Positions 116-11,414 of a stretch of 20,000 bases of DNA are shown here, piece by piece. How positions within the stretch are numbered: position 1 is the stretch's first letter; the number at the start of each line of letters is the position of its first letter. Under the pieces are notes generated by a model. That model did not search any database. It worked only from the letters and a program-made list of their open reading frames with translations, and was not told where the DNA came from. The DNA lies in the IMG/VR virus record IMGVR_UViG_3300025277_000015, one strand, 5' to 3'. The position numbers were made by a program, and so were the translations under genes. Source of the stretch: an uncultured virus (IMG/VR IMGVR_UViG_3300025277_000015) (Duplodnaviria; Heunggongvirae; Uroviricota; Caudoviricetes).

Positions 116-3100
116 ATGGCAAGTACTTATGAGAATGACCTCAGACTTCAAGAGATTGGCACAGGCGAGCAGTCTGGTACATGGGGTACGACCACAAACA
201 CAAACTTAGAATTAATTGGTGAAGCACTTTCCTACAGCGCCACAGGCGAAGCAATAGCTAACGCAAGCACACATACTATAACAGTAGCAGATGGGGTAGC
301 CGACGAAGCACGTTGTTTCTACTTAAAATGCACAGGTGGCGGGCAAGCATGTACAGTTACACTTGCGCCTAACTCGCTGTCTAAAGTCTGGGTTATTGAG
401 AACACAACTAGCTATACATTGACGTTCTCACAAGGGTCTGGCGCTAACGTCGCTATACTTGCAGGTCAAGTTAAGATGATAGCTACCGATGGCGCAGGTT
501 CTGGCGCAGCAATTTATGACCTTATGCAAGACCTGGCTGTACCTGATTTGTTTGTAGATGATGACTTAACTCTGCAGTCTGACGCTGCGGTACTTGGCTT
601 TGGTGCAGATAAAGATACTACACTGACACATGTTGCTGACACTGGGTTACTATTAAACAGTACACGACAACTACAGTTTGGAGACTCAGGAACGTATATT
701 CATCAAAGTGCTGATGGAGTCCTTGATTTAGTATCCGATACAGAAATAGAGATTAACGCTACAACCATAGATATAAATGGTGCAGTAGATGTTTCTGGTA
801 CATATACTGGTGGTGGTTTAATGACCACAGGTGGCAACATAGTTATCCCTGACGCGGGTAATATTGGATCTGCTAGTGACACAAATGCAATCGCTATAGG
901 CGCTGATGGTGATGTTACGCTAACTCAAGATTTAGAGCTACAACATGATGCCGCAACATTATCTTTCGGGGCAGACAACGATGTTATTCTTACGCACGTA
1001 GCTGATACAGGGTTGCTGTTAAATTCAACAATGCAACTTCAGTTTAATGATGCATCACAATATATTAATGCTCCTAGTGCCACAGTACTAGATATTAATG
1101 CTACAGATGAGATTGAGCTTAACGCCACTCTTATTGATGTAAACGGTAACTTAGACGTTTCTGGTACATCACAACTTACAGGAGTAGTTACCTTTACAGC
1201 CACTCCAGTGTTTAGTTCAGACATTACTATTGAAGATGATTTATTCCTAGATAGTGACGCAGCAGTAATTCACTTAGGTGAAGATGGAGACGTAACTCTT
1301 ACGCACGTAGCTGATACAGGCATATTGTTAAATTCAACAATGCAACTTCAGTTTAACGATGCGTCACAATATATTAATGCTCCTAGCGCGACTGTCCTAG
1401 ATATTAACGCTACAGATGAGGTAGAACTTAACGCTACATTAGTAGATATTAATGCTAACTTAGAAGTTTCAGGCACTGCCGCAATAACAGGAATTGCTAC
1501 CTTTACTGACGATATAATCATTGGTGATGGTAAGACTATTGGCTCTGCCTCAGATGTGGACGCCATGACTATAGCTTCTAACGGGCAAGTAACCTTTACG
1601 CAGACACTCATTGGTACGGCACTAGACATTTCTGGTGATATTGATGTGGATGGAACGACTAACCTAGACGTGGTGGATATTGATGGTGCTGTTGATATGG
1701 CAAGCACTCTTGCTGTAGGCGGTGTCGTTACAGCCAACGCAGGTGTAGTTGTAGATAATATTACAATCGATGGCACTGAAATAGACTTATCTTCTGGTGA
1801 TCTTACGATAGATGTTGCAGGAAATATTGACCTTGATGCAGATGGAGGACAAGTTAGTATATCAGATGGTGGTACGGAGATAGGTTATCTATATAATAGT
1901 TCTAGTGATTTTATTATCCAAAGTGCAGTTTCTGATAAAGATATTAAGATTCAAGGTAACGATGGTGGTTCAACCGTTACAGCCCTGACCCTTGATATGT
2001 CAGATGCAGGTACTGCTTTATTTAACAGTGATGTTCGTCTAAATGATGCCAAGGTACTTCGCCTTGGTAATGACCAAGATTTTAGAATTTCATTTGATGG
2101 TAGTCACGGTGTTATACAAAATACAACAACTGACTCAGATATACTTTTAAAAGGTAACGATGATGGTTCAACCATTACAGCTCTCACCCTTGATATGTCA
2201 GCGGCAGGTGCGGCTACGTTTAATGATAAAATTACAGCAGTTGGTACATCTGTATTTACTAACTTAGACATCTCAGGTGACATAGACGTAGACGGTACAA
2301 CAAACTTAGACGCTGTAGACGTAGATGGTGCAGTTAACTTTGCGGCAGACGTTACCTTTGCAGATGGTGCAGATATTATTACTGCTTCAGCAGGTACATC
2401 TAACTTCAGAGCAGGTGTTAATGCAGGTAACTCAATAGCATCTGGCGGTAACTACAACGTAGCTGTAGGTGATAGTTCTGGTACTGCGATTACAACTGGT
2501 GATGAGAATGTTTTTGTAGGATTTAAAGCTGGGTTTGGTACTACAACTTCAGGGCAAAATATAGCTATAGGGTCAGGTGCTTTAGAAACTAATATTTTAG
2601 GTAGTCATAATGTTGGTATAGGTAATGCAGCTCTTGCTACTATGAACCAAGGTACTGCTACAAATACATACAATACCGCAGTTGGTTCATCAGCAGGTGG
2701 AGCAATAACCACAGGCACAAATAATACCTTAATTGGTGGATTAGCTGGTGATGCAATTACAACAGGTGTTTCTAATAATGCAGTTGGATACGGTGCTTTA
2801 GGTGCAACCACTACTGCTAATCAGAACAATGCTTTTGGTAGAAACTCTTTAGGGGCTAATACAACTGGTGCTGATAATACTGCTTTCGGACAAAATACTT
2901 TAGGAACAAATGTACTAGGTAGTAAGTCTACCGCAGTGGGTTCTGACGCTTTATCCACTCAAAACTATGCAACAGCTACGGATGGGTATAATACAGCAGT
3001 AGGTTATCTAGCAGGATCAGCAGTAACCACAGGCATACAGAACACTCTTTTAGGCGCAAACTCAGGGGATGCCTTAACGGATGCTGATTTTAATGTTGCT

Positions 3101-5113
3101 GTCGGTACTTATGCTTTAACGTCTGATACTTTAGGATCTCGTTCTGTTGCAATGGGGTGGGGAGCTTTATTTAACCAAAACTTTACCACAGCTACCGATT
3201 CTTACAATACTGCCGTAGGGCATGGTGCAGGTTCAGAAGTAACCACAGGCGTCAACAATACCCTAATCGGTGGTCTTGCAGGAGATGCGATTACGACAGG
3301 GTCAACTAATACAGGGGTCGGAAAGAATGCTTTAAGTGCAACAACAACTGCTTCTGATAATACAGCAGTGGGTGCTGAAGCATTAAAAACTAACACAACA
3401 GCGGCAAACGGAACTGCGGTAGGATACAATGCTCTATCTAGTAACACGACAGGTGCAGGTAATACAGCCGTTGGTCGTAGAGCTTTAGCGGCAAACACGA
3501 CTGCTGATAACAATGTGGCTGTTGGAATAGATGCAGGACTATCAGTAACAACAGGCGCTCAGAATACGTTTATCGGTGCAGCGGCAGGAGATGCTGTTAC
3601 GACAGGGGGTCAGAATACTGCCCTTGGAAATGATGCTTTAGGTGTTTTGACTGTTGGTTCTGACAATGTAGCAATAGGTAAAAATGCACTAGAAGGTGAT
3701 ACTAAAGGTAGTAAAACTGTTGCTATAGGTAGATCAGCTTTAGGAACACAAAACTTTACAACTGCTACAGACGCTTACAATACAGCAGTAGGATATAACG
3801 CTGGACTATCAGTAAGCACAGGCGTTGAAAACACCGTCATTGGTGGCCTTACAGGTGATGCTCTTACTACAGGTTCATATAATGTTTTTGTAGGTAAAGG
3901 TGCAGGTTCTGCGGCAACAACGTCTGATGATAATACAGCAGTTGGTAAGGATGCATTACTTACTTGTACTACAGGTAACTCTAATACTGTTCTTGGAAAA
4001 AGAGCAGGAAAATTATTAACAACAGGCTCTCAAAACACTTTTATAGGTAAAGAAGCAGGTAATGCAAATACTACCGCTGGAACTAATGTTGCGGTGGGGT
4101 ATCAAGCAATGACTGACAACACAACTGGTGCTAACAACACAGCAGTTGGCTACCTTGCATTAGGCAATAACACGACTGCTGCTGGTAACTCTGCTGTTGG
4201 ATACAAGGCACTAGAAGATTGTACAACTGGACACAGCAATGCTGGAAGTGGAGCGTATGCTTTATCTAGCGTTACAACTGGTGATAAAAATACAGGAGTT
4301 GGTTATTCTGTTGGTGCTAAAATGACAACGTCAGATGAAAATACTTGTATAGGCAATGTAGCTGGTTTTGAGCTTACTACTGGAGCAGATAATACTTTTG
4401 TTGGCTCTGAAGCTGGTGATGGTACTGATGATGGTGCTGAAAACGTGGCTGTAGGTAAGTCTGCCCTATCCGCTAATTGTGGTAATGGAAATGCCGCTGT
4501 TGGTCACGCTGCTTTATTAGCTTGTACAGGAGCATTTAATACTGCAATGGGAGTTAGTGCAGGTAGTGCTGTAACAAGTGGCGGCAACAATTTAATTTTA
4601 GGAAAAGACGCTGGATTAACAGGAAGTCCTGGTGGTAACATAACCACAGGTAGCAATGAAATTGTGCTTGGTGATGAAAATATTAGTGAAGCTCATATAC
4701 AAGTAGATTGGACAGTAGCTTCTGACCAACGTGATAAGACAGACTTTACAGCACTAGACTTAGGTTTAGATTTTGTTAAAGGACTAGCACCTGTAACATA
4801 CAAGTGGGATAAACGCTCTAAGTATGGCGATAAGACTGCTGATGGTTATGACCTTAACGCACAGTCTCCAGACGGAACACATAAAGAAGACTGGTTAGAC
4901 ATAGGCTTTAAGGCACAAGAAGTTCAAGCACTTGAAGAGGCCGCAGGATATACAACAGCCGCTAAGAAAAACCTTACTGTATCTACATCAGAAGATGGCA
5001 AGCAGATGGGTATACAATACAGCAAGTTTGTACCCATTTTAGTAAAAGCGATTCAAGAACAGAACGCATTAATTGAAGCACTCACTGCAAGAGTGGCAAC
5101 TTTAGAAGGATAA
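116..5113 (+). CDS. Long tail fibre/tailspike with C-terminal intramolecular chaperone (peptidase S74-like)
   Basis: 1665 aa with AAAGG upstream. N-terminal anchor-like motif (GEQSGTWGTTTNTNL), repeated beta-rich shaft modules, and many G/N/A/T-rich 'NTAVG..AG..ITTG' repeats. The C-terminus has SDQRDK...GLDFV..L.PVTYKW...GFKAQEV...Y.KFVPILVKAIQE followed by a coiled coil. Confidence 0.92.
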   Translation: MASTYENDLRLQEIGTGEQSGTWGTTTNTNLELIGEALSYSATGEAIANASTHTITVADGVADEARCFYLKCTGGGQACTVTLAPNSLSKVWVIENTTSYTLTFSQGSGANVAILAGQVKMIATDGAGSGAAIYDLMQDLAVPDLFVDDDLTLQSDAAVLGFGADKDTTLTHVADTGLLLNSTRQLQFGDSGTYIHQSADGVLDLVSDTEIEINATTIDINGAVDVSGTYTGGGLMTTGGNIVIPDAGNIGSASDTNAIAIGADGDVTLTQDLELQHDAATLSFGADNDVILTHVADTGLLLNSTMQLQFNDASQYINAPSATVLDINATDEIELNATLIDVNGNLDVSGTSQLTGVVTFTATPVFSSDITIEDDLFLDSDAAVIHLGEDGDVTLTHVADTGILLNSTMQLQFNDASQYINAPSATVLDINATDEVELNATLVDINANLEVSGTAAITGIATFTDDIIIGDGKTIGSASDVDAMTIASNGQVTFTQTLIGTALDISGDIDVDGTTNLDVVDIDGAVDMASTLAVGGVVTANAGVVVDNITIDGTEIDLSSGDLTIDVAGNIDLDADGGQVSISDGGTEIGYLYNSSSDFIIQSAVSDKDIKIQGNDGGSTVTALTLDMSDAGTALFNSDVRLNDAKVLRLGNDQDFRISFDGSHGVIQNTTTDSDILLKGNDDGSTITALTLDMSAAGAATFNDKITAVGTSVFTNLDISGDIDVDGTTNLDAVDVDGAVNFAADVTFADGADIITASAGTSNFRAGVNAGNSIASGGNYNVAVGDSSGTAITTGDENVFVGFKAGFGTTTSGQNIAIGSGALETNILGSHNVGIGNAALATMNQGTATNTYNTAVGSSAGGAITTGTNNTLIGGLAGDAITTGVSNNAVGYGALGATTTANQNNAFGRNSLGANTTGADNTAFGQNTLGTNVLGSKSTAVGSDALSTQNYATATDGYNTAVGYLAGSAVTTGIQNTLLGANSGDALTDADFNVAVGTYALTSDTLGSRSVAMGWGALFNQNFTTATDSYNTAVGHGAGSEVTTGVNNTLIGGLAGDAITTGSTNTGVGKNALSATTTASDNTAVGAEALKTNTTAANGTAVGYNALSSNTTGAGNTAVGRRALAANTTADNNVAVGIDAGLSVTTGAQNTFIGAAAGDAVTTGGQNTALGNDALGVLTVGSDNVAIGKNALEGDTKGSKTVAIGRSALGTQNFTTATDAYNTAVGYNAGLSVSTGVENTVIGGLTGDALTTGSYNVFVGKGAGSAATTSDDNTAVGKDALLTCTTGNSNTVLGKRAGKLLTTGSQNTFIGKEAGNANTTAGTNVAVGYQAMTDNTTGANNTAVGYLALGNNTTAAGNSAVGYKALEDCTTGHSNAGSGAYALSSVTTGDKNTGVGYSVGAKMTTSDENTCIGNVAGFELTTGADNTFVGSEAGDGTDDGAENVAVGKSALSANCGNGNAAVGHAALLACTGAFNTAMGVSAGSAVTSGGNNLILGKDAGLTGSPGGNITTGSNEIVLGDENISEAHIQVDWTVASDQRDKTDFTALDLGLDFVKGLAPVTYKWDKRSKYGDKTADGYDLNAQSPDGTHKEDWLDIGFKAQEVQALEEAAGYTTAAKKNLTVSTSEDGKQMGIQYSKFVPILVKAIQEQNALIEALTARVATLEG
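988..1440 (+). repeat. Internal duplication in the tail fibre (about 140 bp core, 309 bp spacing)
   Basis: 988-~1130 and 1297-~1440 are near-identical (LTHVADTG.LLNSTMQLQFNDASQYINAPSATVLDINATDE), differing mostly at synonymous sites. A more diverged third copy starts near 620. Confidence 0.9.
2399..4620 (+). repeat. Degenerate ~14-aa G/N/A/T repeats (beta-helix or beta-roll like) in the tail fibre
   Basis: Dozens of N-[TV]-A-[VI]-G-x-x-A units. A higher-order motif 'N..TAT..YNTAVG' occurs four times. Confidence 0.85.
4721..5110 (+). other. Peptidase S74-like autocleaving chaperone domain
   Basis: S-D-x-R-x-K motif (SDQRDK) begins at 4721, followed by the typical downstream motifs and a terminal coiled coil. 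Confidence 0.85.
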
Positions 5114-5378: not shown

Positions 5379-6014
5379 ATGGAGCTAATGCCACGCCACT
5401 TTCCTAACATAGGGGTTGTTGAAGGACAACTTCCAGAGGATGTTGTGGCTAACCTATGGACTGTGATTAACGAGGCAAGAGAGAAGCCAGATGACATGAA
5501 GCCTGAACTTGCAGGTAACATCAGCTCCTCTATACGCCTTGATGGTAGCTCACCCTTACTAGAAGAGTTTGTCGGTGAGATAGTTCCTAAGTTTATGGAC
5601 AGTCACATTGGGTCTTATGGCCCACCTTGGAGAGCTGTAATGAAGGAAGGTGAAGGGTTTAACTTAGAAAGCCTTTGGGTAAACTTTCAGAAGAAGCATG
5701 AGTTTAACCCACCACACGATCACGGTGGAGTTTACAGTTTTGTAATATGGATGCAAATACCGACATCCTTTGCAGAACAACGCAAGCTACCTGTATGCGC
5801 TGAGTCAAATGCAGATAATCACATATCTAACTTTGCGTTTAGTTACACAAATACGTTAGGCAAAGTATCTACATTTGCGTATAATATGGAGAAAGAAGCA
5901 GAAGGGTACATGGTTATGTTTCCTGCACAAATGCTCCACCAAGTTTTTCCGTTTTATGAGAATGACGGAGAGAGAATATCAATATCAGGTAATATTAACA
6001 TAGAGGAAAAATAA
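5379..6014 (+). CDS. 2OG-Fe(II) oxygenase superfamily protein (TIGR02466 / 2OG-FeII_Oxy_5-like)
   Basis: Motifs WVNFQKKHEFNPPHDH, YSFVIW, MFPAQMLHQVFP and RISISGN supply the HxH...H iron ligands and the RxS 2-oxoglutarate-binding motif. Confidence 0.88.
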   Translation: MELMPRHFPNIGVVEGQLPEDVVANLWTVINEAREKPDDMKPELAGNISSSIRLDGSSPLLEEFVGEIVPKFMDSHIGSYGPPWRAVMKEGEGFNLESLWVNFQKKHEFNPPHDHGGVYSFVIWMQIPTSFAEQRKLPVCAESNADNHISNFAFSYTNTLGKVSTFAYNMEKEAEGYMVMFPAQMLHQVFPFYENDGERISISGNINIEEK

Positions 6015-6015
6015 A

Positions 6016-6126
6016 ATGGCAAGAGAAACAGATCAGATTGCACAAGACTACTCAGCAATGCTGGGCAGTGAAAACATGACTCCAGTAACAAATGCGATTA
6101 ATGCTGCTACAACCTTTATAGGTTAA
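6016..6126 (+). pseudogene. Internally deleted paralog of 5119-5364 (36 aa, not in the ORF track)
   Basis: Reads MARETDQIAQDYSAMLGSENMTPVTNAINAATTFIG*. Its AQDYSAM and GSENMT..TNAI segments align with AQDYTAM and GSESMT..TNAI of the 81-aa ORF, with about 43 central residues missing. GAGGA lies upstream. Confidence 0.75.
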
Positions 6127-6152
6127 ACAAACCATAACAAAGGGAGAAAATT

Positions 6153-6398
6153 ATGGCTAAAAAAGAAGAAGTTAAGGAAAATGTAATTAATATTGACGGT
6201 AAAGGGTACAAAGAAACTGATTTAAGTCAGCAACAAAAGTATCTTATAGCGCAACTAAAAGACTTAGGGGCAAAAGCTGGTAAACTTAGAGCTGATTTAG
6301 ATCAAGTACAAAGAGCCGCAGATAGCTTCCAGAAAGATTTATTAGAGTCTTTTAAAGAAGTGTCTGATGAGACCTCTGAAGAAGCTGAAGCAAGTTAG
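6153..6398 (+). CDS. Small coiled-coil hypothetical protein (possibly DUF6447-like)
   Basis: GGGAG RBS. 'INIDGK.Y...DLS..QK' followed by an amphipathic helix. The family name is from recall only. Confidence 0.75.
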   Translation: MAKKEEVKENVINIDGKGYKETDLSQQQKYLIAQLKDLGAKAGKLRADLDQVQRAADSFQKDLLESFKEVSDETSEEAEAS

Positions 6399-6406
6399 GA
6401 TTAACA

Positions 6407-6598
6407 ATGGCAAGAACAGTAGTGCAAGCTCACAACCGCATAGACACAATCGAACCTAAGATTACTAAACTAGAGACTGAAAATCACATTCAGTTTAAAG
6501 AAGTGTTTTACAGGTTAAAACGTTTAGAGGTGTTTTTAGTGGGTGGGCTTGGCGCTACTATTGCTATGTTAGTGAGTATACTACTTAAAATGGGGTAG
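6407..6598 (+). CDS. Small coiled-coil protein with C-terminal TM helix (XhlA/holin-like)
   Basis: AGGA RBS. Coiled coil ending RLKRLE, then hydrophobic VFLVGGLGATIAMLVSILL. Confidence 0.72.
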   Translation: MARTVVQAHNRIDTIEPKITKLETENHIQFKEVFYRLKRLEVFLVGGLGATIAMLVSILLKMG

Positions 6599-6601
6599 GT
6601 A

Positions 6602-7207
6602 ATGAAAAAATCTTTGTTATATTTGTCTTGGAGTCTTTTAGCGTTATTGTTTTTAATTATACTAGTACCTATGGTTTATGCAGAGGGTTGTGACAGTACG
6701 ACAAATAGTAATTGTGTAGAAGCTAACAGCTATACAAACTCTAAATCAACCTCTACGATAGATAGCACGACTACTGTAAAGTCTCCACCACCATCCGCTA
6801 TTTCACCTAGTATTAATTCATCAAGCTCAGACACGTGTCATATACCTGCTGGTGGCTCTGTACAGACACAAATACTGGGAATTAGTGGTGGCACAACAAT
6901 TAGAGATTTAAACTGTGAACGACTAAAAAACGCTAAGGTTATGTACGATATGGGCTTAAAAATAAGTGCTGTAGCAATAATGTGCCAGGACAAAAGGATT
7001 CACCTTGCGATGGCAAATTCTGGCACTCCATGTCCAATCAACGGTCTTGTAGGAGATGCAGCTAAGGCTGAGTGGGAAAACAATCCACATCTAGTACCTG
7101 GGTATGTTGCAGGTAAGAAGGAGAAATGGGATGAAGACGATAAGGCGACAGCTCGTGGGGCTGCTGGCATTGGTGGTCTTTTCTTGGCCTTGTTATTCTT
7201 ACTCTGA
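6602..7207 (+). CDS. Predicted exported Cys-rich protein with C-terminal membrane anchor
   Basis: Signal peptide MKK...VYA|E, six Cys, S/T/P-rich linker, Cys-flanked hairpin (C..PAGGSVQTQILGISGGTTIRDLNC) and terminal hydrophobic GIGGLFLALLFLL. Confidence 0.8.
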   Translation: MKKSLLYLSWSLLALLFLIILVPMVYAEGCDSTTNSNCVEANSYTNSKSTSTIDSTTTVKSPPPSAISPSINSSSSDTCHIPAGGSVQTQILGISGGTTIRDLNCERLKNAKVMYDMGLKISAVAIMCQDKRIHLAMANSGTPCPINGLVGDAAKAEWENNPHLVPGYVAGKKEKWDEDDKATARGAAGIGGLFLALLFLL

Positions 7208-8018
7208 GAATATTTACGGCAACACAAAAAACGCAGCTTCTGATGCACACAAATGGGTAATGAATAACCTACTGCCAGCACAAACTGGTTTGACGGTAGA
7301 GGGTGTGTTCCACAAGTACACAATAACCAAACAACCAACAACAAATTCAACTGTCTCGATTACCAATAAAAAAGTGGGTGGTGATGAATATGTTTACGAG
7401 TATGTAGACGATTGGAACAATTTACCCAGCGGCACAAAGATTAAATATGACCAAATAGTGCCTACACTTGGTAATTTGTTTGGTGATGGTGAGATAAAAG
7501 TTACGGGAGATGGGTCTCTTTCCGATGTTTTAATACTATACCACTATAAATATGACCCATGCCACACACCACTTAGCGACTCAAGTTGTCCTAATTTTAA
7601 AGATGCATTGTATGATTATCTATCAACCAACGGTTTGCTCACGTCACCGAACGTAGACGACCCGTATTATAATCAGTGGGTACAGATACAATTAGATGAA
7701 CAAGCAGAGGTAGAAGAACAGGAAGTTGATGAGCCTGAAGAAGAGGAAGCAAGTGAGGAATTGACTGTAGAAGAGGTACTCTCCGTAGCAGGTGTTGTAG
7801 ATAAAATTGCAGATCCTGTGCAACAGTTAAAAATGATGCAACAGATAGCCGCTATTGGGAAACTTGAATTATACACAAATCGTGATATAGATGGTGGTGT
7901 CTATGAAGATGTTTTACAAATAGACGGCGGTGAATTTGAAGATAACGTCAAGGCTTACAGAAGTTTAGGTCAAGACAGCACCCACAGAAGTATGGTTCGT
8001 TCTCAGTATGACGACTAA
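7131..8018 (+). CDS. Predicted exported protein; start reassigned from 7104 to 7131 (295 aa)
   Basis: AAGGAG at 7118-7123 sits 7 nt before the in-frame ATG at 7131, giving a clean signal peptide MKTIRRQLVGLLALVVFSWPCYSYS. Then a beta-rich domain, a DPC..PL....CP motif, an acidic linker and a helical C-terminus. Confidence 0.8.
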   Translation: MKTIRRQLVGLLALVVFSWPCYSYSENIYGNTKNAASDAHKWVMNNLLPAQTGLTVEGVFHKYTITKQPTTNSTVSITNKKVGGDEYVYEYVDDWNNLPSGTKIKYDQIVPTLGNLFGDGEIKVTGDGSLSDVLILYHYKYDPCHTPLSDSSCPNFKDALYDYLSTNGLLTSPNVDDPYYNQWVQIQLDEQAEVEEQEVDEPEEEEASEELTVEEVLSVAGVVDKIADPVQQLKMMQQIAAIGKLELYTNRDIDGGVYEDVLQIDGGEFEDNVKAYRSLGQDSTHRSMVRSQYDD

Positions 8019-8032
8019 ACAATGGAGATAAC

Positions 8033-8530
8033 ATGATTAAAAAAATAACACCTTTAATATTTTTGCTTTCAACCAGTTACGCTTGGGCAGTCAACTCACC
8101 AATTACAGGCACGGTTCAAGCTAGTTGTAGCATTGTAACGACCACACCAGGACAATACGGTGTGCCAAATATATGGAAACTTTCAACTGCTTCTGCAGAT
8201 GGGGGTCAAGATGCTGTTATAAAAACGACGATTGGCACTGCTGATAAGTATAAAGTAAAGATTACCCACCCGAATAGTTTTAGCTCATCACCTTCTCTGT
8301 CTGATACATTAACTTGGACAGGAAGCAGTGTGTACACATCTGGAAGTGTTTCTGGAATGTCAGCATATAATGCCGCTAAAGTCGTTGTAGGTAATGAAAC
8401 AACCTTTGATATGACTTTGGCAGGGACGACATTCTTTACAGTAGCTTCAACCGCTTCATATGGATATAATCGTGCATTCCCTAGTGGGTCTTATACAGCA
8501 TTGATATTAGCTGAATGTATCGCCAAGTAG
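8033..8530 (+). CDS. Exported pilin-like protein (resembles Csu/spore-coat-U fimbrial subunits)
   Basis: GGAG RBS and signal peptide ...AWA|V. N-terminal 'ITGTVQASCSI', S/T/G-rich beta composition, C-terminal 'PSGSYTALILAEC'. The CDS is secure; the pilin call is motif-based. Confidence 0.6.
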   Translation: MIKKITPLIFLLSTSYAWAVNSPITGTVQASCSIVTTTPGQYGVPNIWKLSTASADGGQDAVIKTTIGTADKYKVKITHPNSFSSSPSLSDTLTWTGSSVYTSGSVSGMSAYNAAKVVVGNETTFDMTLAGTTFFTVASTASYGYNRAFPSGSYTALILAECIAK

Positions 8531-8889
8531 CTTTAATTTTCATGTTGCTTGGGTTTCAGGCTCAAGCGCACGAAATGACTCCAGCATACCCAAAGTTTAA
8601 CTATAGTTATATCGAAGGTGTGTCTGTCACAAAGATGTTTTTGTTTAACAGGCGTAATGATGTTTCATATTACCAAATAGGTGTATTTACATTAGATTGG
8701 AAAGAAATACCCTTTGCATCTACATCAAAACTTATAAAGGTAAAACACGCTAAGAAATATCCATTTGATGTTTATATACGAAACTCTGACCTAGATAGGG
8801 TTGGATACATATGTACAATATCAAAAGTTTTTAAGGGGGAAGAGCAGAAAGCTTTGATAACTTCAAGGATTTGCTCAAAGATAGAATAA
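8515..8889 (+). CDS. Exported single-domain beta protein, possibly PapD-N-like chaperone fold
   Basis: Signal peptide ...AQA|H. Pattern MTP...LFN....YYQIGV...PF and a C-terminal Cys pair (ICT...ICS). Overlaps the upstream gene by 16 nt. Confidence 0.55.
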   Translation: MYRQVALIFMLLGFQAQAHEMTPAYPKFNYSYIEGVSVTKMFLFNRRNDVSYYQIGVFTLDWKEIPFASTSKLIKVKHAKKYPFDVYIRNSDLDRVGYICTISKVFKGEEQKALITSRICSKIE

Positions 8890-9318
8890 ATGAGAATATG
8901 GTTATTTATTATAGTTGTTATGTCTGTAACAGGTTGCAGTGTAATAAGTGTTTTTGCCGATAGCACGTCAAATTCTTTAAGTTTATCTCTCCCAAACACA
9001 GGCGGTAACTACCAGTCAGATTCTTTTAGAGCAGGAGAACTGGATTGTAGCATGGCGCTAGGGAGTGCAACAAACATTGAGTTTGGCATCACATCTATCA
9101 TTCAGGGCGGCACAGCGGAGAACAGTAGAAAAACTGGAGATATTGGGTTATACTCAAAGATAACAATTCCACTGGGTAGACGAAATAAAGGGTCTCGTTT
9201 AGACTGTAACAGACTGTATGAGATTGAATTAAAGAAAAAACATTTAGAAGTAATGAAGTTACAACAAGAGATTGATAGGTTACGTGAGTTAGGTAATGAC
9301 TTATCGTTTGAAAATTAG
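8890..9318 (+). CDS. Predicted lipoprotein or exported protein with Cys-flanked beta-hairpin and C-terminal coiled coil
   Basis: MRIWLFIIVVMSVTGC matches the lipobox [LVI][ASTVI][GAS]C. Alternating strands NIEFGITSII and IGLYSKITIPLG lie between two LDC motifs, followed by a heptad helix. Confidence 0.65.
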   Translation: MRIWLFIIVVMSVTGCSVISVFADSTSNSLSLSLPNTGGNYQSDSFRAGELDCSMALGSATNIEFGITSIIQGGTAENSRKTGDIGLYSKITIPLGRRNKGSRLDCNRLYEIELKKKHLEVMKLQQEIDRLRELGNDLSFEN

Positions 9319-9327
9319 GAGAAGATT

Positions 9328-9885
9328 ATGGCTGAAATGGAGGTAGGTGGCGTAAAGTTTTCTGGCTTTGGCAAAATCGGTATTGCAGTCACAGCATTAA
9401 GCACACTGGCGGGTTCGGCCTATGTGGGATATGAGTTTTACTTTGATTATCTTGATTTGCGCGAGGTAGTACAAGAGATTGATATTGATGCAATTAAAGC
9501 GGAAAATGAGCTCGTTTTAACAAAACTAGATGACGCCATTGTCTACACCAGAGACATTAAGAACAATCTCCGAGATGATCTTCTTAAACTAGAGGGATAT
9601 ATTGATAAGTTGGAGAAGAAGATTGAGACATCTTCAGAGCGCATAAAAACCACGCAAGGCTCCATAGACTTAGTATTAGAAGACGTTCTTAATCAAATGA
9701 ACGAGGTGCAGAAAGACGTGACAGCCGCAATAAGAGAGGTTGAAACCTTAAATAGAGAGACAGAGAAAGACGTCCGTGATACGATGCGGGATATAGAAAA
9801 CAGAATAGAAGAAGATATGCGAAAGCTTGAAGAGCAGTTAAACGAAAGATTACAAGAAGCGTTAGATAATCCCTTGGCTAATTAA
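9328..9885 (+). CDS. N-terminally membrane-anchored long coiled-coil protein
   Basis: AGGAG RBS. Hydrophobic segment IGIAVTALSTLAGSAYVGY, then about 140 aa of charged heptads ending ALDNPLAN. Confidence 0.8.
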   Translation: MAEMEVGGVKFSGFGKIGIAVTALSTLAGSAYVGYEFYFDYLDLREVVQEIDIDAIKAENELVLTKLDDAIVYTRDIKNNLRDDLLKLEGYIDKLEKKIETSSERIKTTQGSIDLVLEDVLNQMNEVQKDVTAAIREVETLNRETEKDVRDTMRDIENRIEEDMRKLEEQLNERLQEALDNPLAN

Positions 9886-9931
9886 CGTAATTGGTGTATA
9901 TAAAAGTTGTTTAGGTACGTAGGAGTTTACT

Positions 9932-10258
9932 ATGGCAGGAAAAAAACTACAGGAAAACAGTAAATACGCAATGGCAGATGCCGATGGCGACGGTGTAATA
10001 ACCGATGATGAGATGGATCGCCACGAGCGTTGGATACGTTTAGAAAACGAAGATAAGCTAGCGGATACACAACGTGTAATGGCCTGGATTGCAATGGTTG
10101 TGACGATTGTAGCTGTTGTTGTCTTGTTAACACCCGTTGTTGCTGTTGATAGACTTTCGGCGGCGGCAGGTTTTTTAAATACATTTATCGTTGCACAATT
10201 AGGAGTCGTTGTTGGTTTTATGGGTGCTACGGCTATTTCTAAAACTAAACTAAAATAG
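9932..10258 (+). CDS. Two-TM membrane protein with N-terminal EF-hand-like loop (holin/antiholin candidate)
   Basis: AGGAG RBS, DADGDGVITDDE loop, two hydrophobic helices and a basic C-terminus. Located directly upstream of the holin and endolysin. Confidence 0.75.
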   Translation: MAGKKLQENSKYAMADADGDGVITDDEMDRHERWIRLENEDKLADTQRVMAWIAMVVTIVAVVVLLTPVVAVDRLSAAAGFLNTFIVAQLGVVVGFMGATAISKTKLK

Positions 10259-10267
10259 GAGGATAAC

Positions 10268-10732
10268 ATGTTATCACTGCTAGGAGCAGCACTGGGGTTT
10301 GGTACATCTGTACTACCAAGTGTCATTGATTTATTTCAACAACGTCAGAAAGATGCACAAGAGCTAAAGATGCTCGAAGCGAAGGGTAAATACGCAGCGC
10401 AGCTATCTTCCCTTAAATTAGACGAACTTGAGTCTAAAGCAGATATAGCTGAAACCGAGGGCATATACGCTTCTATGAGGGCGGCAAATGCTAAATCAGG
10501 CTTTGCGGCGGCCTTGAGTGGTTCTGTACGACCTGTAATAACATATTTGTTTGTTGGGTTTTTTCTATTGGTTAAAATAACGACCTTAATGTATGCGATG
10601 AATAACGGTGCAGACTTTAGAGATGCGGTCAATGAGGTGTATTCGGACGATGTAAATTTATTGTTCACAAGCATAATCTCATTTTGGTTTGGATCACGCC
10701 AATTTGCTAAATTAAGAAAGAATGCAAAATGA
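10268..10732 (+). CDS. Holin, GTA_holin_3TM-like
   Basis: GGAGG RBS. Family motifs SVRPVITY and IISFWFGSR, hydrophobic N-terminus, and a 4-nt overlap with the endolysin. Confidence 0.8.
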   Translation: MLSLLGAALGFGTSVLPSVIDLFQQRQKDAQELKMLEAKGKYAAQLSSLKLDELESKADIAETEGIYASMRAANAKSGFAAALSGSVRPVITYLFVGFFLLVKITTLMYAMNNGADFRDAVNEVYSDDVNLLFTSIISFWFGSRQFAKLRKNAK

Positions 10733-11241
10733 AACAAAACTTTGAAGAATGTATGGCGCGTCTCCTTGAACACGAAGGGGGCTATGTAAATTTGGCTGCT
10801 GATCCTGGGGGTGAAACTAATTATGGAGTTACCCGTGCAGTCTATGAGCAATACGTTGGACGGCAAGTTATGGATGGTGAGATGAAAGGTCTTACTCACG
10901 ATGACGTTTACCCTATATACAAAGAGAATTATTGGGATAGGCTTCGGGCAGACGATCTCCCTTCTGGGGTTGACTGGAGTTGCTTCGATTGGGGTGTGAA
11001 TAGCGGGACAAGTCGTGCAGCTAAAGCACTGCAACGTATTGTAGGTGTAGAACAAGATGGTGGTATCGGACCAATGACATTACAGGCAGTTGCTGAAGTA
11101 GAGCCCACAGAAATAATAGAACAGATGCACCATATGCGTGATAAGTTTTACAGAGAGCTTAGTACCTTTGACACGTTCGGACGTGGTTGGATAAGACGAA
11201 ACGATGAGACTAAAGAGCAGGCACTTAATCTAGTAGAGTAA
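10729..11241 (+). CDS. Endolysin, glycoside hydrolase family 108 with peptidoglycan-binding domain
   Basis: HEGGYVN...DPGGETNYGVT catalytic motif, Y...YWD, FDWGVNSG, LQRIVG...DG.IGP.T and FGRGW.RR. Confidence 0.95.
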   Translation: MKQNFEECMARLLEHEGGYVNLAADPGGETNYGVTRAVYEQYVGRQVMDGEMKGLTHDDVYPIYKENYWDRLRADDLPSGVDWSCFDWGVNSGTSRAAKALQRIVGVEQDGGIGPMTLQAVAEVEPTEIIEQMHHMRDKFYRELSTFDTFGRGWIRRNDETKEQALNLVE

Positions 11242-11252
11242 AGGAGAATATT

Positions 11253-11414
11253 ATGGATTGGATTAAAGGAAGACTAAAAGAACCTTCAAGTTATGGAGCT
11301 GCCGCTGTTGTAGGCGTAGGGCTTGGTATTTTGTTTAGTATGCCAATATTAACTTGGGCAGGCATTGTTTGTGCTATTTTTGGGTTAGTACTTAAGGAAA
11401 AATCAGACGAGTAG
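11253..11414 (+). CDS. Small two-TM protein, holin-like (53 aa, not in the ORF track)
   Basis: AAGGAG RBS at 11241-11246. Reads MDWIKGRLKEPSSYGAAAVVGVGLGILFSMPILTWAGIVCAIFGLVLKEKSDE* and fills the gap after the endolysin. Confidence 0.8.
   Translation: MDWIKGRLKEPSSYGAAAVVGVGLGILFSMPILTWAGIVCAIFGLVLKEKSDE

Follow-up and report, generated by a model that had tools for sequence, protein, structure and literature searches.

This analysis concerns a gene of an uncultured virus of the Caudoviricetes (IMG/VR record IMGVR_UViG_3300025277_000015), which lies at 8033-8530 of a 20,000-nucleotide stretch, referred to below as the window. The gene encodes a putative exported immunoglobulin (Ig)-like protein, here called the subunit, and is followed by genes for a predicted single-domain PapD-like protein, the half-chaperone, and for a third small exported protein with a predicted hairpin and coiled coil (Table 1). 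Together, these three proteins are referred to as the trio. An initial annotation, made from the sequence alone, had taken the subunit for a pilin-like protein of the chaperone-usher type. This idea is partly supported, by the context of the gene rather than by the subunit's own fold.

The subunit and its two neighbouring proteins

The subunit gene is preceded by a GGAG located 8 nt 5' of its ATG. The protein begins with MIKKITPLIFLLSTSYAWA followed by VNSPITGTVQASCSI, and its leader, which combines two lysines, a hydrophobic core and an A-x-A site, resembles a Sec signal peptide by eye, with the cleavage junction between MIKKITPLIFLLSTSYAWA and VNSP. The mature protein comprises 146 amino acids, 38% of which are serine, threonine or glycine, and ends in ...FPSGSYTALILAECIAK. 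Its only cysteines are C32 and C162, the latter being the fourth residue from the end. The initial annotation had described the open reading frame (ORF), the signal peptide, the S/T/G-rich beta body and the two terminal cysteines, and it was right in every detail: these features are present in the sequence, and the structural model is nearly all beta.

Relatives of the subunit are numerous. Of 250 candidates from a word-indexed search, 120 proved to be related at E ≤ 0.01; nearly all are 160-170 amino acids long, and none has a precomputed Pfam domain or a name past 'hypothetical'. A profile search of 1.84 billion representatives returned 134 proteins at E ≤ 1e-3, about 20 of which are full-length distant relatives of 146-186 amino acids; one distant relative, P0238, comes from Nitratireductor sp. 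ZSWI3, where it is annotated as a hypothetical protein. The family is also common in ocean data, with 599 pattern matches in IMG/VR and at least 536 viral loci that encode a relative. In PHROGs, the subunit matches phrog_25895, a group of unknown function, with an E-value of 2.2e-8. Searching 50,697 phage records with the subunit by tblastn gave nothing at E ≤ 1, and blastn with 6000-11300 gave a GH108 fragment as its sole match. A search for longer or fused forms of the subunit gave none, which is weak evidence. Judging from these searches, the subunit belongs to a family that is real, large and without a name.

Both cysteines are invariant in all 31 relatives of one alignment (A1) and in all 24 sequences of a wider one (A2; 20-44% identity to the first row). 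Exactly two mature cysteines, at the C32 and C162 positions, are found in 75 of 76 full-length viral subunit ORFs, the remaining one having three, and AECIAK forms the final six residues in 67 of the 76. Ahead of the first cysteine, I24, G26 and V28 are invariant in A1, and the wider family retains a V-x-F-x-G-x-V motif. Conservation of Cys162 is not due to the overlap of its gene with the next one, because the cysteines are also invariant in bacterial copies in which the two genes do not overlap; in the Chelativorans locus, for example, the subunit gene stops at 8399 and the next gene starts at 8409. On the strength of these alignments, the cysteine pair is no chance feature.

The ATG of the half-chaperone gene overlaps the last codons and stop of the subunit gene by 16 nt, an arrangement found in 60 of 68 viral loci. 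An AlphaFold2 (AF2) model of the half-chaperone, built from alignment A4, which holds 30 sequences from phages and bacteria, has a predicted local distance difference test (pLDDT) score of 85.3. Foldseek returns 34 PDB matches to this model at E ≤ 1e-3, led by PapD (2.9e-4), SafB, FimC, SfaE, DraB, Caf1M and major sperm protein (MSP) domains. VIA-align (VIA) finds 32 chains at Z ≥ 8, including FimC (10.3), SafB (10.2), YadV (9.7), CfaA (9.7), the MOSPD2 MSP domain (9.7) and PapD (9.1), with CsuC (8.9), CupB2 (8.7), FaeE (8.5) and EcpB (8.2) further down. Because the VIA alignments cover chaperone residues ~1-120 only, the half-chaperone is best described as a single-domain PapD-like protein. 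There is no match to PF00345 or PF02753 and no meaningful PDB profile match; the model thus places the protein in the PapD-like/MSP superfamily at the level of fold, without a sequence match. The comparisons support a fold like that of chaperone domain 1, and the half-chaperone may accordingly function as a chaperone. A copper-binding N-terminal histidine was also considered for the mature start HEMTP and was dropped, as bacterial relatives start with QSMTP.

The third protein has a signal peptide with a conserved A-x-A site followed by D-S, which fits signal peptidase I. Its mature part contains an S-L-S-L-S-L-P strand, two amphipathic strands bracketed by the invariant cysteines C53 and C106, and a C-terminal heptad helix with a conserved LSFEN (alignment A5). 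The junction between the half-chaperone gene and the third gene measures -4 or 0 nt in 55 of 68 viral loci. A lipobox-like motif occurs in 25 of 74 viral copies, so the third protein is not a conserved lipoprotein, and lipidation seems, from the sequences, to be optional in the family. The copy in the window carries a lipobox-like VTGC inside its signal peptide, and two thirds of its viral relatives are without one. No Pfam or NCBIfam family and no meaningful PDB profile match were found for the third protein, and an Atlas search returned unnamed viral clusters only. As a guess, it might form an oligomeric ring in the outer membrane or periplasm.

Table 1. Features of the window and of two bacterial copies of the trio (positions are those of the window, except in the Chelativorans and Mesorhizobium loci).
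Feature	Position	Strand	Length	Description or basis
Phage-only envelope protein	6602-7207	+	201 aa	Signal peptide, S/T-rich linker, Cys-rich domain, C-terminal hydrophobic tail
Phage-only exported protein	7104-8018	+	304 aa	Possible alternative start: ATG at 7131
Subunit, Ig-like	8033-8530	+	165 aa	ATG start; ORF list and sequence
Subunit, putative signal peptide (residues 1-19)	8033-8089			Read from sequence
Subunit, conserved N-terminal extension (residues 20-31)	8090-8125			
Subunit, Cys32 codon	8126-8128			
Subunit, Cys162 codon	8516-8518			
Half-chaperone, predicted single-domain PapD-like exported protein	8515-8889	+	124 aa	AF2, Foldseek and VIA
Third protein, predicted exported hairpin and coiled-coil protein	8890-9318	+	142 aa	Alignment A5
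Phage-only anchored coiled-coil protein	9328-9885	+	185 aa	N-terminal membrane anchor, coiled coil, conserved ...LDNPL.N end
Small membrane protein	9932-10258	+		Just upstream of the holin-like gene
Holin-like protein	10268-10732	+		PF11351 at 2.6e-4, below its cut-off
GH108 endolysin	10729-11241	+		PF05838 at 1.5e-29; phrog_315 at 1.6e-52
Chelativorans L084, trio in phage order	subunit 7890-8399; half-chaperone 8409-8810; third protein 8723-9250			
Mesorhizobium L096, four-gene operon	subunit A 6496-7017; half-chaperone 7041-7433; third protein 7400-7960; subunit B ends at 8417			

Subunit fold and the pilin interpretation

An AF2 model of the subunit, built on A1, predicts an Ig-like sandwich that is nearly all beta, with a mean pLDDT of 89.6 and a predicted template-modelling score of 0.77. 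Block means of pLDDT are 93-98 from residue 31 on and 70 for residues 21-30, and strands span residues 32-164, with none assigned before residue 32. The first strand (32-38) starts with C32, and the last (160-164) contains C162. Since the cysteines sit in these two strands, the simplest reading of the model is an intramolecular disulfide that staples the terminal strands together; a cross-link between neighbouring subunits, which the initial annotation had raised as a speculation, is a possible alternative. The conserved alternating segment is predicted to lie outside the fold of the monomer, as would be expected of a donor or edge strand.

Structural comparisons of the subunit model point in several directions. 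The best Foldseek row against the PDB is the pilin domain of PapG (E 3.5e-3, template-modelling (TM) scores 0.41/0.51), followed at rank 2 by the CanA protein of cannulae and then by CfaB, Caf1, CsuA/B and HdaB, with MSCRAMM and AP2 domains interspersed. The pilin rows are weak, with E-values of 3.5e-3 to 3.4e-2 and TM scores of 0.3-0.5. VIA on the top 1000 Foldseek rows keeps the order of the VIA search over all representatives (below), with CanA at Z 6.5 over 137 residues. A fold search of BFVD with the subunit produced 0 matches at E ≤ 1e-3. In the Atlas, a cluster labelled SCPU, in which 15% of members carry PF05229, appears at rank 23 (score 0.95, 184 shared features) and serves as a lead only.

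Several results weigh against reading the subunit and its neighbour as a pilin and its chaperone. No PDB structure matches the subunit model in Foldseek at E ≤ 1e-3. Across 48,161 representatives, VIA reaches a best Z of 7.8, for the N3 domain of the MSCRAMM FnBPA, with none at Z ≥ 8, and no chaperone-usher pilin appears among the best 50 rows. The fold match is therefore weak and unspecific, and on the model pilins score no better than unrelated Ig-like domains. Profile searches are similarly silent: none of the Pfam families matches the subunit at E ≤ 0.1 (12 window proteins scanned), no pilin family appears among the 31 aligned relatives (E ≤ 5) or among 22 distant ones (E ≤ 1), NCBIfam gives nothing for the subunit, and a PDB profile search with it gives one irrelevant match (E 0.34). 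PF05229 has 0 matches in a Mesorhizobium genome that carries the trio (G002). No usher (PF00577), two-domain chaperone or SCPU domain is found among the 12 window proteins, and usher, PapD and SCPU domains are likewise absent from 48 ORFs of five bacterial loci. For the half-chaperone, VIA ranks the C-terminal domain of a glycosidase first (Z 10.6), and the PapD-like/MSP fold is common to many proteins that are not chaperones.

Profile-profile comparison was also carried out with an alignment of seven SCPU proteins. With the wide subunit family, hhalign gives a probability of 33.5% and a pairwise E-value of 4.4e-4, in a collinear, end-to-end alignment that places the N-terminal cysteine on a cysteine and the G-x-Y on a G-x-Y. 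A control with the family of the neighbouring protein gives 0.4%. The profile built from phage subunits only reaches 2.9%, a further point against the pilin interpretation. A very remote kinship to SCPU proteins is possible.

The initial annotation had proposed SCPU or fimbrial families as the place to look for kin. No match to PF05229 or PF00419 was obtained, and the SCPU value given above is the highest that profile-profile comparison yielded; by sequence, the subunit does not belong to these families. What stands of the pilin reading is an apparently exported beta-sandwich with an alternating N-terminal segment (I24, G26, V28) and a G-x-Y C-terminal strand, whereas family membership and a specific pilin fold match do not. 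Context adds a coupled neighbour with a predicted PapD-like, domain-1-type fold, but neither an usher nor a two-domain chaperone. This coupled neighbour is the strongest argument for a chaperone-subunit logic.

Distribution of the trio in phages and Hyphomicrobiales

The viral context of the subunit was assessed in 80 IMG/VR loci kept out of the at least 536. In tblastn searches of these loci, six genes recur in fixed order: 6602-7207 in 66 loci, 7104-8018 in 73, the subunit in 80, the half-chaperone in 78, the third protein in 75 and 9328-9885 in 71. Most of the missing genes appear by eye to fall at contig ends. The flanks vary, with homologues of the holin in 18 loci, of the endolysin in 20 and of the tail fibre in 18.

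Copies of the trio are also found in bacteria. Subunit homologues were located in 57 loci, all in Hyphomicrobiales (one genome per species, alignment A3), from the genera Mesorhizobium, Nitratireductor, Chelativorans, Hyphomicrobium, Aureimonas and Aminobacter. Counts of the other genes derive from hidden Markov models (HMMs) built from phage proteins only and run over six-frame translations of these loci; counts from iterated HMMs were left unused, being contaminated by overlapping open frames of high-GC DNA. At E ≤ 1e-3, the third-protein HMM has a match in 52 of the 57 loci (best 1.1e-14), no more than about 1 kb away from the subunit homologue and in the same orientation. The other five loci seem to be cut short, to judge by their length or by how far the match extends: L099, L105, L116 and L120 are short or end near the match, and in L134 the match covers query residues 119-154 only. 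Matches of the half-chaperone HMM occur in 20 of the 57 loci at E ≤ 0.1, the best at 1.6e-4, and invariably lie between the subunit and third genes. HMMs of 6602-7207, 7104-8018 and 9328-9885 match none of the 57 at E ≤ 1.

Flanking genes in the bacterial loci are of housekeeping type and differ by genus, including MttB, aroK/aroB/xerD-like genes, a PfkB kinase, an amidase and LuxR. The bacterial trio proteins have no Pfam or NCBIfam name; the Mesorhizobium half-chaperone has 283 relatives, and the 120 of them listed are all 'hypothetical' without a Pfam domain. In a sample of 301 genomes from the same class as G002, the third-protein family occurs in two, one of which is G002 itself, so the trio is patchy in bacteria. 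In Nitratireductor sp. ZSWI3 (L082, 6404-9298), two subunit-like ORFs and two third-gene matches stand in tandem. The set thus seems to have been duplicated, and its partners may co-evolve.

The three remaining genes of the six-gene block are phage-only. The 6602-7207 protein corresponds to phrog_20531 (E 9.5e-14), and its Cys-rich domain occurs in 13 phage records, from podovirus-like and T4-like pelagiphages, roseophages and Ralstonia phage RSP15, the pelagiphages and roseophages having it without the trio. Its tail is purely hydrophobic (GIGGLFLALLFLL), with no basic residues after it. The 7104-8018 protein has a beta-rich N-terminal part with two cysteines, an acidic linker and a helical C-terminal part, and matches no Pfam, PHROGs or NCBIfam family. 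The 9328-9885 protein gives coiled-coil noise only in Pfam and NCBIfam, and resembles an i-spanin in layout.

HMMs of all six proteins were run on four cultured phages, CRP-207, HTVC115P, HTVC023P and Mosig. The 6602-7207 HMM matches all four, and the 9328-9885 HMM matches HTVC115P gp49 (1.7e-34), CRP-207 gp73 (1.9e-10) and, weakly, Mosig (0.017). The trio and 7104-8018 HMMs match none of them, the best E-value for the trio being 0.066. Because phage-only members occur in cultured phages that lack the trio, the block is composite: judging from its gene content, the trio is embedded in a pair or set of phage envelope genes. CRP-207 gp73 (L151, 3268-3870) is annotated as a 'putative lysozyme', so that either this annotation is loose or the 9328-9885 family is linked to lysis.

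Downstream of the block, the window carries a small membrane protein gene and then the holin-like and endolysin genes (Table 1). In other loci, the block is followed by an exonuclease (L022, L032 and L038), a portal (L045), a gene for a 1056-amino-acid protein or endolysins; L047 also has a non-lysis context, and an endolysin lies within about 4 kb of the block in L056, L062 and, weakly, L067. Since the downstream genes differ between loci, the link to lysis is frequent but not constant. The small membrane protein (108 amino acids) contains a DADGDGVITDDE stretch, belongs to phrog_27150 and recurs in 30 of the 80 loci; it has weak EF-hand matches (PF13202 at 0.011 and PF00036 at 0.022).

The window has a GC content of 41%, and its 711-amino-acid virion protein matches those of CRP-901/902, HTVC023P/027P and LUZ24-like phages; on these matches, the carrier is a podovirus-type genome. 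Near-identical DNA is present in marine metagenomes of at least 10 studies, not counting the possible source study. Contigs from RNA libraries (4 runs, 3 studies) match parts of 6712-9885 with 90-99% identity, one of them spanning the junction of the subunit and half-chaperone genes (8384-8641); because DNA carry-over is possible, they are no proof of transcription. Upstream, 116-5113 encodes a 1665-amino-acid tail fibre in which near-repeats of the form ...LTHVADTGLLLNST.QLQF... recur many times and whose C-terminus carries a Peptidase_S74 domain, an intramolecular chaperone, and its homologues vary strongly among otherwise close loci. Between the tail fibre and the envelope block, 5379-6014 encodes a 2OG-Fe(II) oxygenase (PF13759 at 2.6e-10, phrog_81) that looks like an auxiliary gene and is found in only 5 of the 80 loci.

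Proposed function and comparison with known systems

The reading favoured here, tentatively and at somewhat less than an even chance, is that the subunit is the Ig-like member of a conserved, unnamed and usher-less three-protein envelope set, which it forms with the PapD-like and hairpin/coiled-coil proteins and which is common to phages and some Hyphomicrobiales. Signal peptides and paired cysteines suggest that all three proteins would be exported by Sec. C32 in the first strand and C162 in the last, being the only cysteines, invariant and in terminal strands, would form the intramolecular staple. As its fold, coupling and co-inheritance suggest, the PapD-like neighbour may bind the subunit by edge-strand or donor-strand pairing, in the way that chaperone domain 1 does. 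More speculatively, the N-terminal extension (P-I-x-G-x-V) might then pair with a second copy of the subunit, or else with the third protein, so that an oligomer or short fibre forms at the outer membrane. Since the phage trio stands together with three phage-only envelope proteins close to lysis genes, it probably acts in the envelope of the infected cell, with surface remodelling or lysis-linked envelope work as candidate roles.

A bolder form of this proposal is unlikely. It would make the trio a self-sufficient usher-less pathway, in which the half-chaperone hands the disulfide-stapled subunit to an oligomeric hairpin/coiled-coil protein of the outer membrane and N-terminal strand exchange builds a surface or periplasmic fibre, by which abundant ocean phages of several morphotypes would rebuild their host's envelope. 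Should the proposal hold, the trio would represent a minimal, pore-less and virus-carried relative of the chaperone-usher pathway, with a bearing on the origin of donor-strand systems and on how abundant marine phages act on the envelope of their host towards the end of infection. A tractable test system is available in culturable Mesorhizobium and related bacteria, which carry the trio on their chromosomes.

The position of the module directly upstream of the holin-like and GH108 endolysin genes suggests a different function, namely an envelope complex in the periplasm that does not polymerise and is connected with lysis or the breakdown of the envelope. The subunit would be one globular part of it, held by the PapD-like protein, and the 8890-9318 and 9328-9885 proteins would bridge the outer and inner membranes in a spanin-like manner, without any fibre. 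No other spanin candidate is seen in the cassette, and the 9328-9885 protein combines an N-terminal anchor with a coiled coil. The HMM match of this protein to the 'putative lysozyme' gp73 of CRP-207, which has its homologue of 6602-7207 two genes upstream, and the three loci with an endolysin within about 4 kb after the module are further points in its favour. However, the chromosomal trio stands among housekeeping genes, without the anchor protein in any of the 57 loci and without lysis genes; the lipobox that defines an o-spanin is confined to a third of the viral copies of 8890-9318; the exonuclease, portal and L047 loci place the module in non-lysis surroundings; and endolysin homologues are found in only a quarter of the viral loci. 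A lysis complex is thus somewhat unlikely.

Strict co-inheritance and translational coupling of the subunit gene with the PapD-like and third genes, in phages and bacteria, together with the tandem duplication in L082, point to a joint function. These features argue against a self-contained secreted Ig-like protein for binding or shielding (for example in receptor masking for superinfection exclusion, or as an adhesin or lectin), in which the cysteines would do no more than stabilise the fold and the neighbouring genes would code for unrelated helpers. Such a protein would agree with the best structural neighbours of the subunit, which are the N3 domains of FnBPA, SdrD and ClfB (Z 7-7.8) and CBM3, and with a monomer model that is confident by itself, but the conserved N-terminal extension outside the fold would need a partner, and this explanation is quite unlikely. 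Highly improbable is a true, very divergent chaperone-usher pilin of the SCPU/Csu type that relies on a host-encoded usher. Its N-terminal V-x-F/I-x-G-x-V...C and C-terminal P-x-G-x-Y-x-A-x-V motifs, the collinear hhalign alignment to SCPU and the Atlas lead would fit, but PF05229 and PF00419 match nowhere, G002 carries the trio without an SCPU match, no usher lies near the five bacterial loci, and the chaperone-like protein has one domain instead of two.

A full-text literature search turned up no description of such a phage cassette, as judged from its listings, and the favoured three-protein envelope set is best compared with three known systems. Rz/Rz1-type spanins resemble it in the anchor and coiled-coil layout of 9328-9885, in a small exported Cys-bearing partner (8890-9318) and in the adjacency of holin and endolysin genes. 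They differ in that 8890-9318 has no conserved lipobox and, in bacteria, accompanies the subunit and half-chaperone where the anchor protein is missing. The outer component of a two-component spanin is a lipoprotein with a lipobox, a description that the 8890-9318 sequences do not appear to fit, and the usual order of spanin genes, i-spanin and then o-spanin, is reversed here.

The CanA cannulae of Pyrodictium (9h8b, 7uii) match nearly the whole subunit model, at Foldseek rank 2 and with VIA Z-scores of 5.8-6.5 over 137-138 residues, and CanA polymerises without an usher, according to the titles of the PDB entries. TasA-type fibres are likewise usher-independent donor-strand polymers. Unlike the trio, CanA and TasA have no PapD-like partner; they show no sequence relation to it, and the scores fall within the common Ig-like range.

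Chaperone-usher pili, such as the PapD-PapG/K, FimC-FimA, SafB-SafA, Caf1M-Caf1 and archaic CsuC-CsuA/B (SCPU, PF05229) systems, share with the phage set an exported Ig-like subunit, an alternating N-terminal segment followed by a cysteine, a G-x-Y C-terminal strand and an adjoining gene whose predicted fold best matches chaperone domain 1. In contrast to these pili, the phage trio has no sequence membership in the pilus families, no two-domain chaperone and no usher. The second cysteine also differs in position, lying mid-protein in known chaperone-usher pilins and at the C-terminus in the phage subunit. Finally, the phage set is distinguished by the third small hairpin/coiled-coil protein, which is always present, and by being carried by phages.

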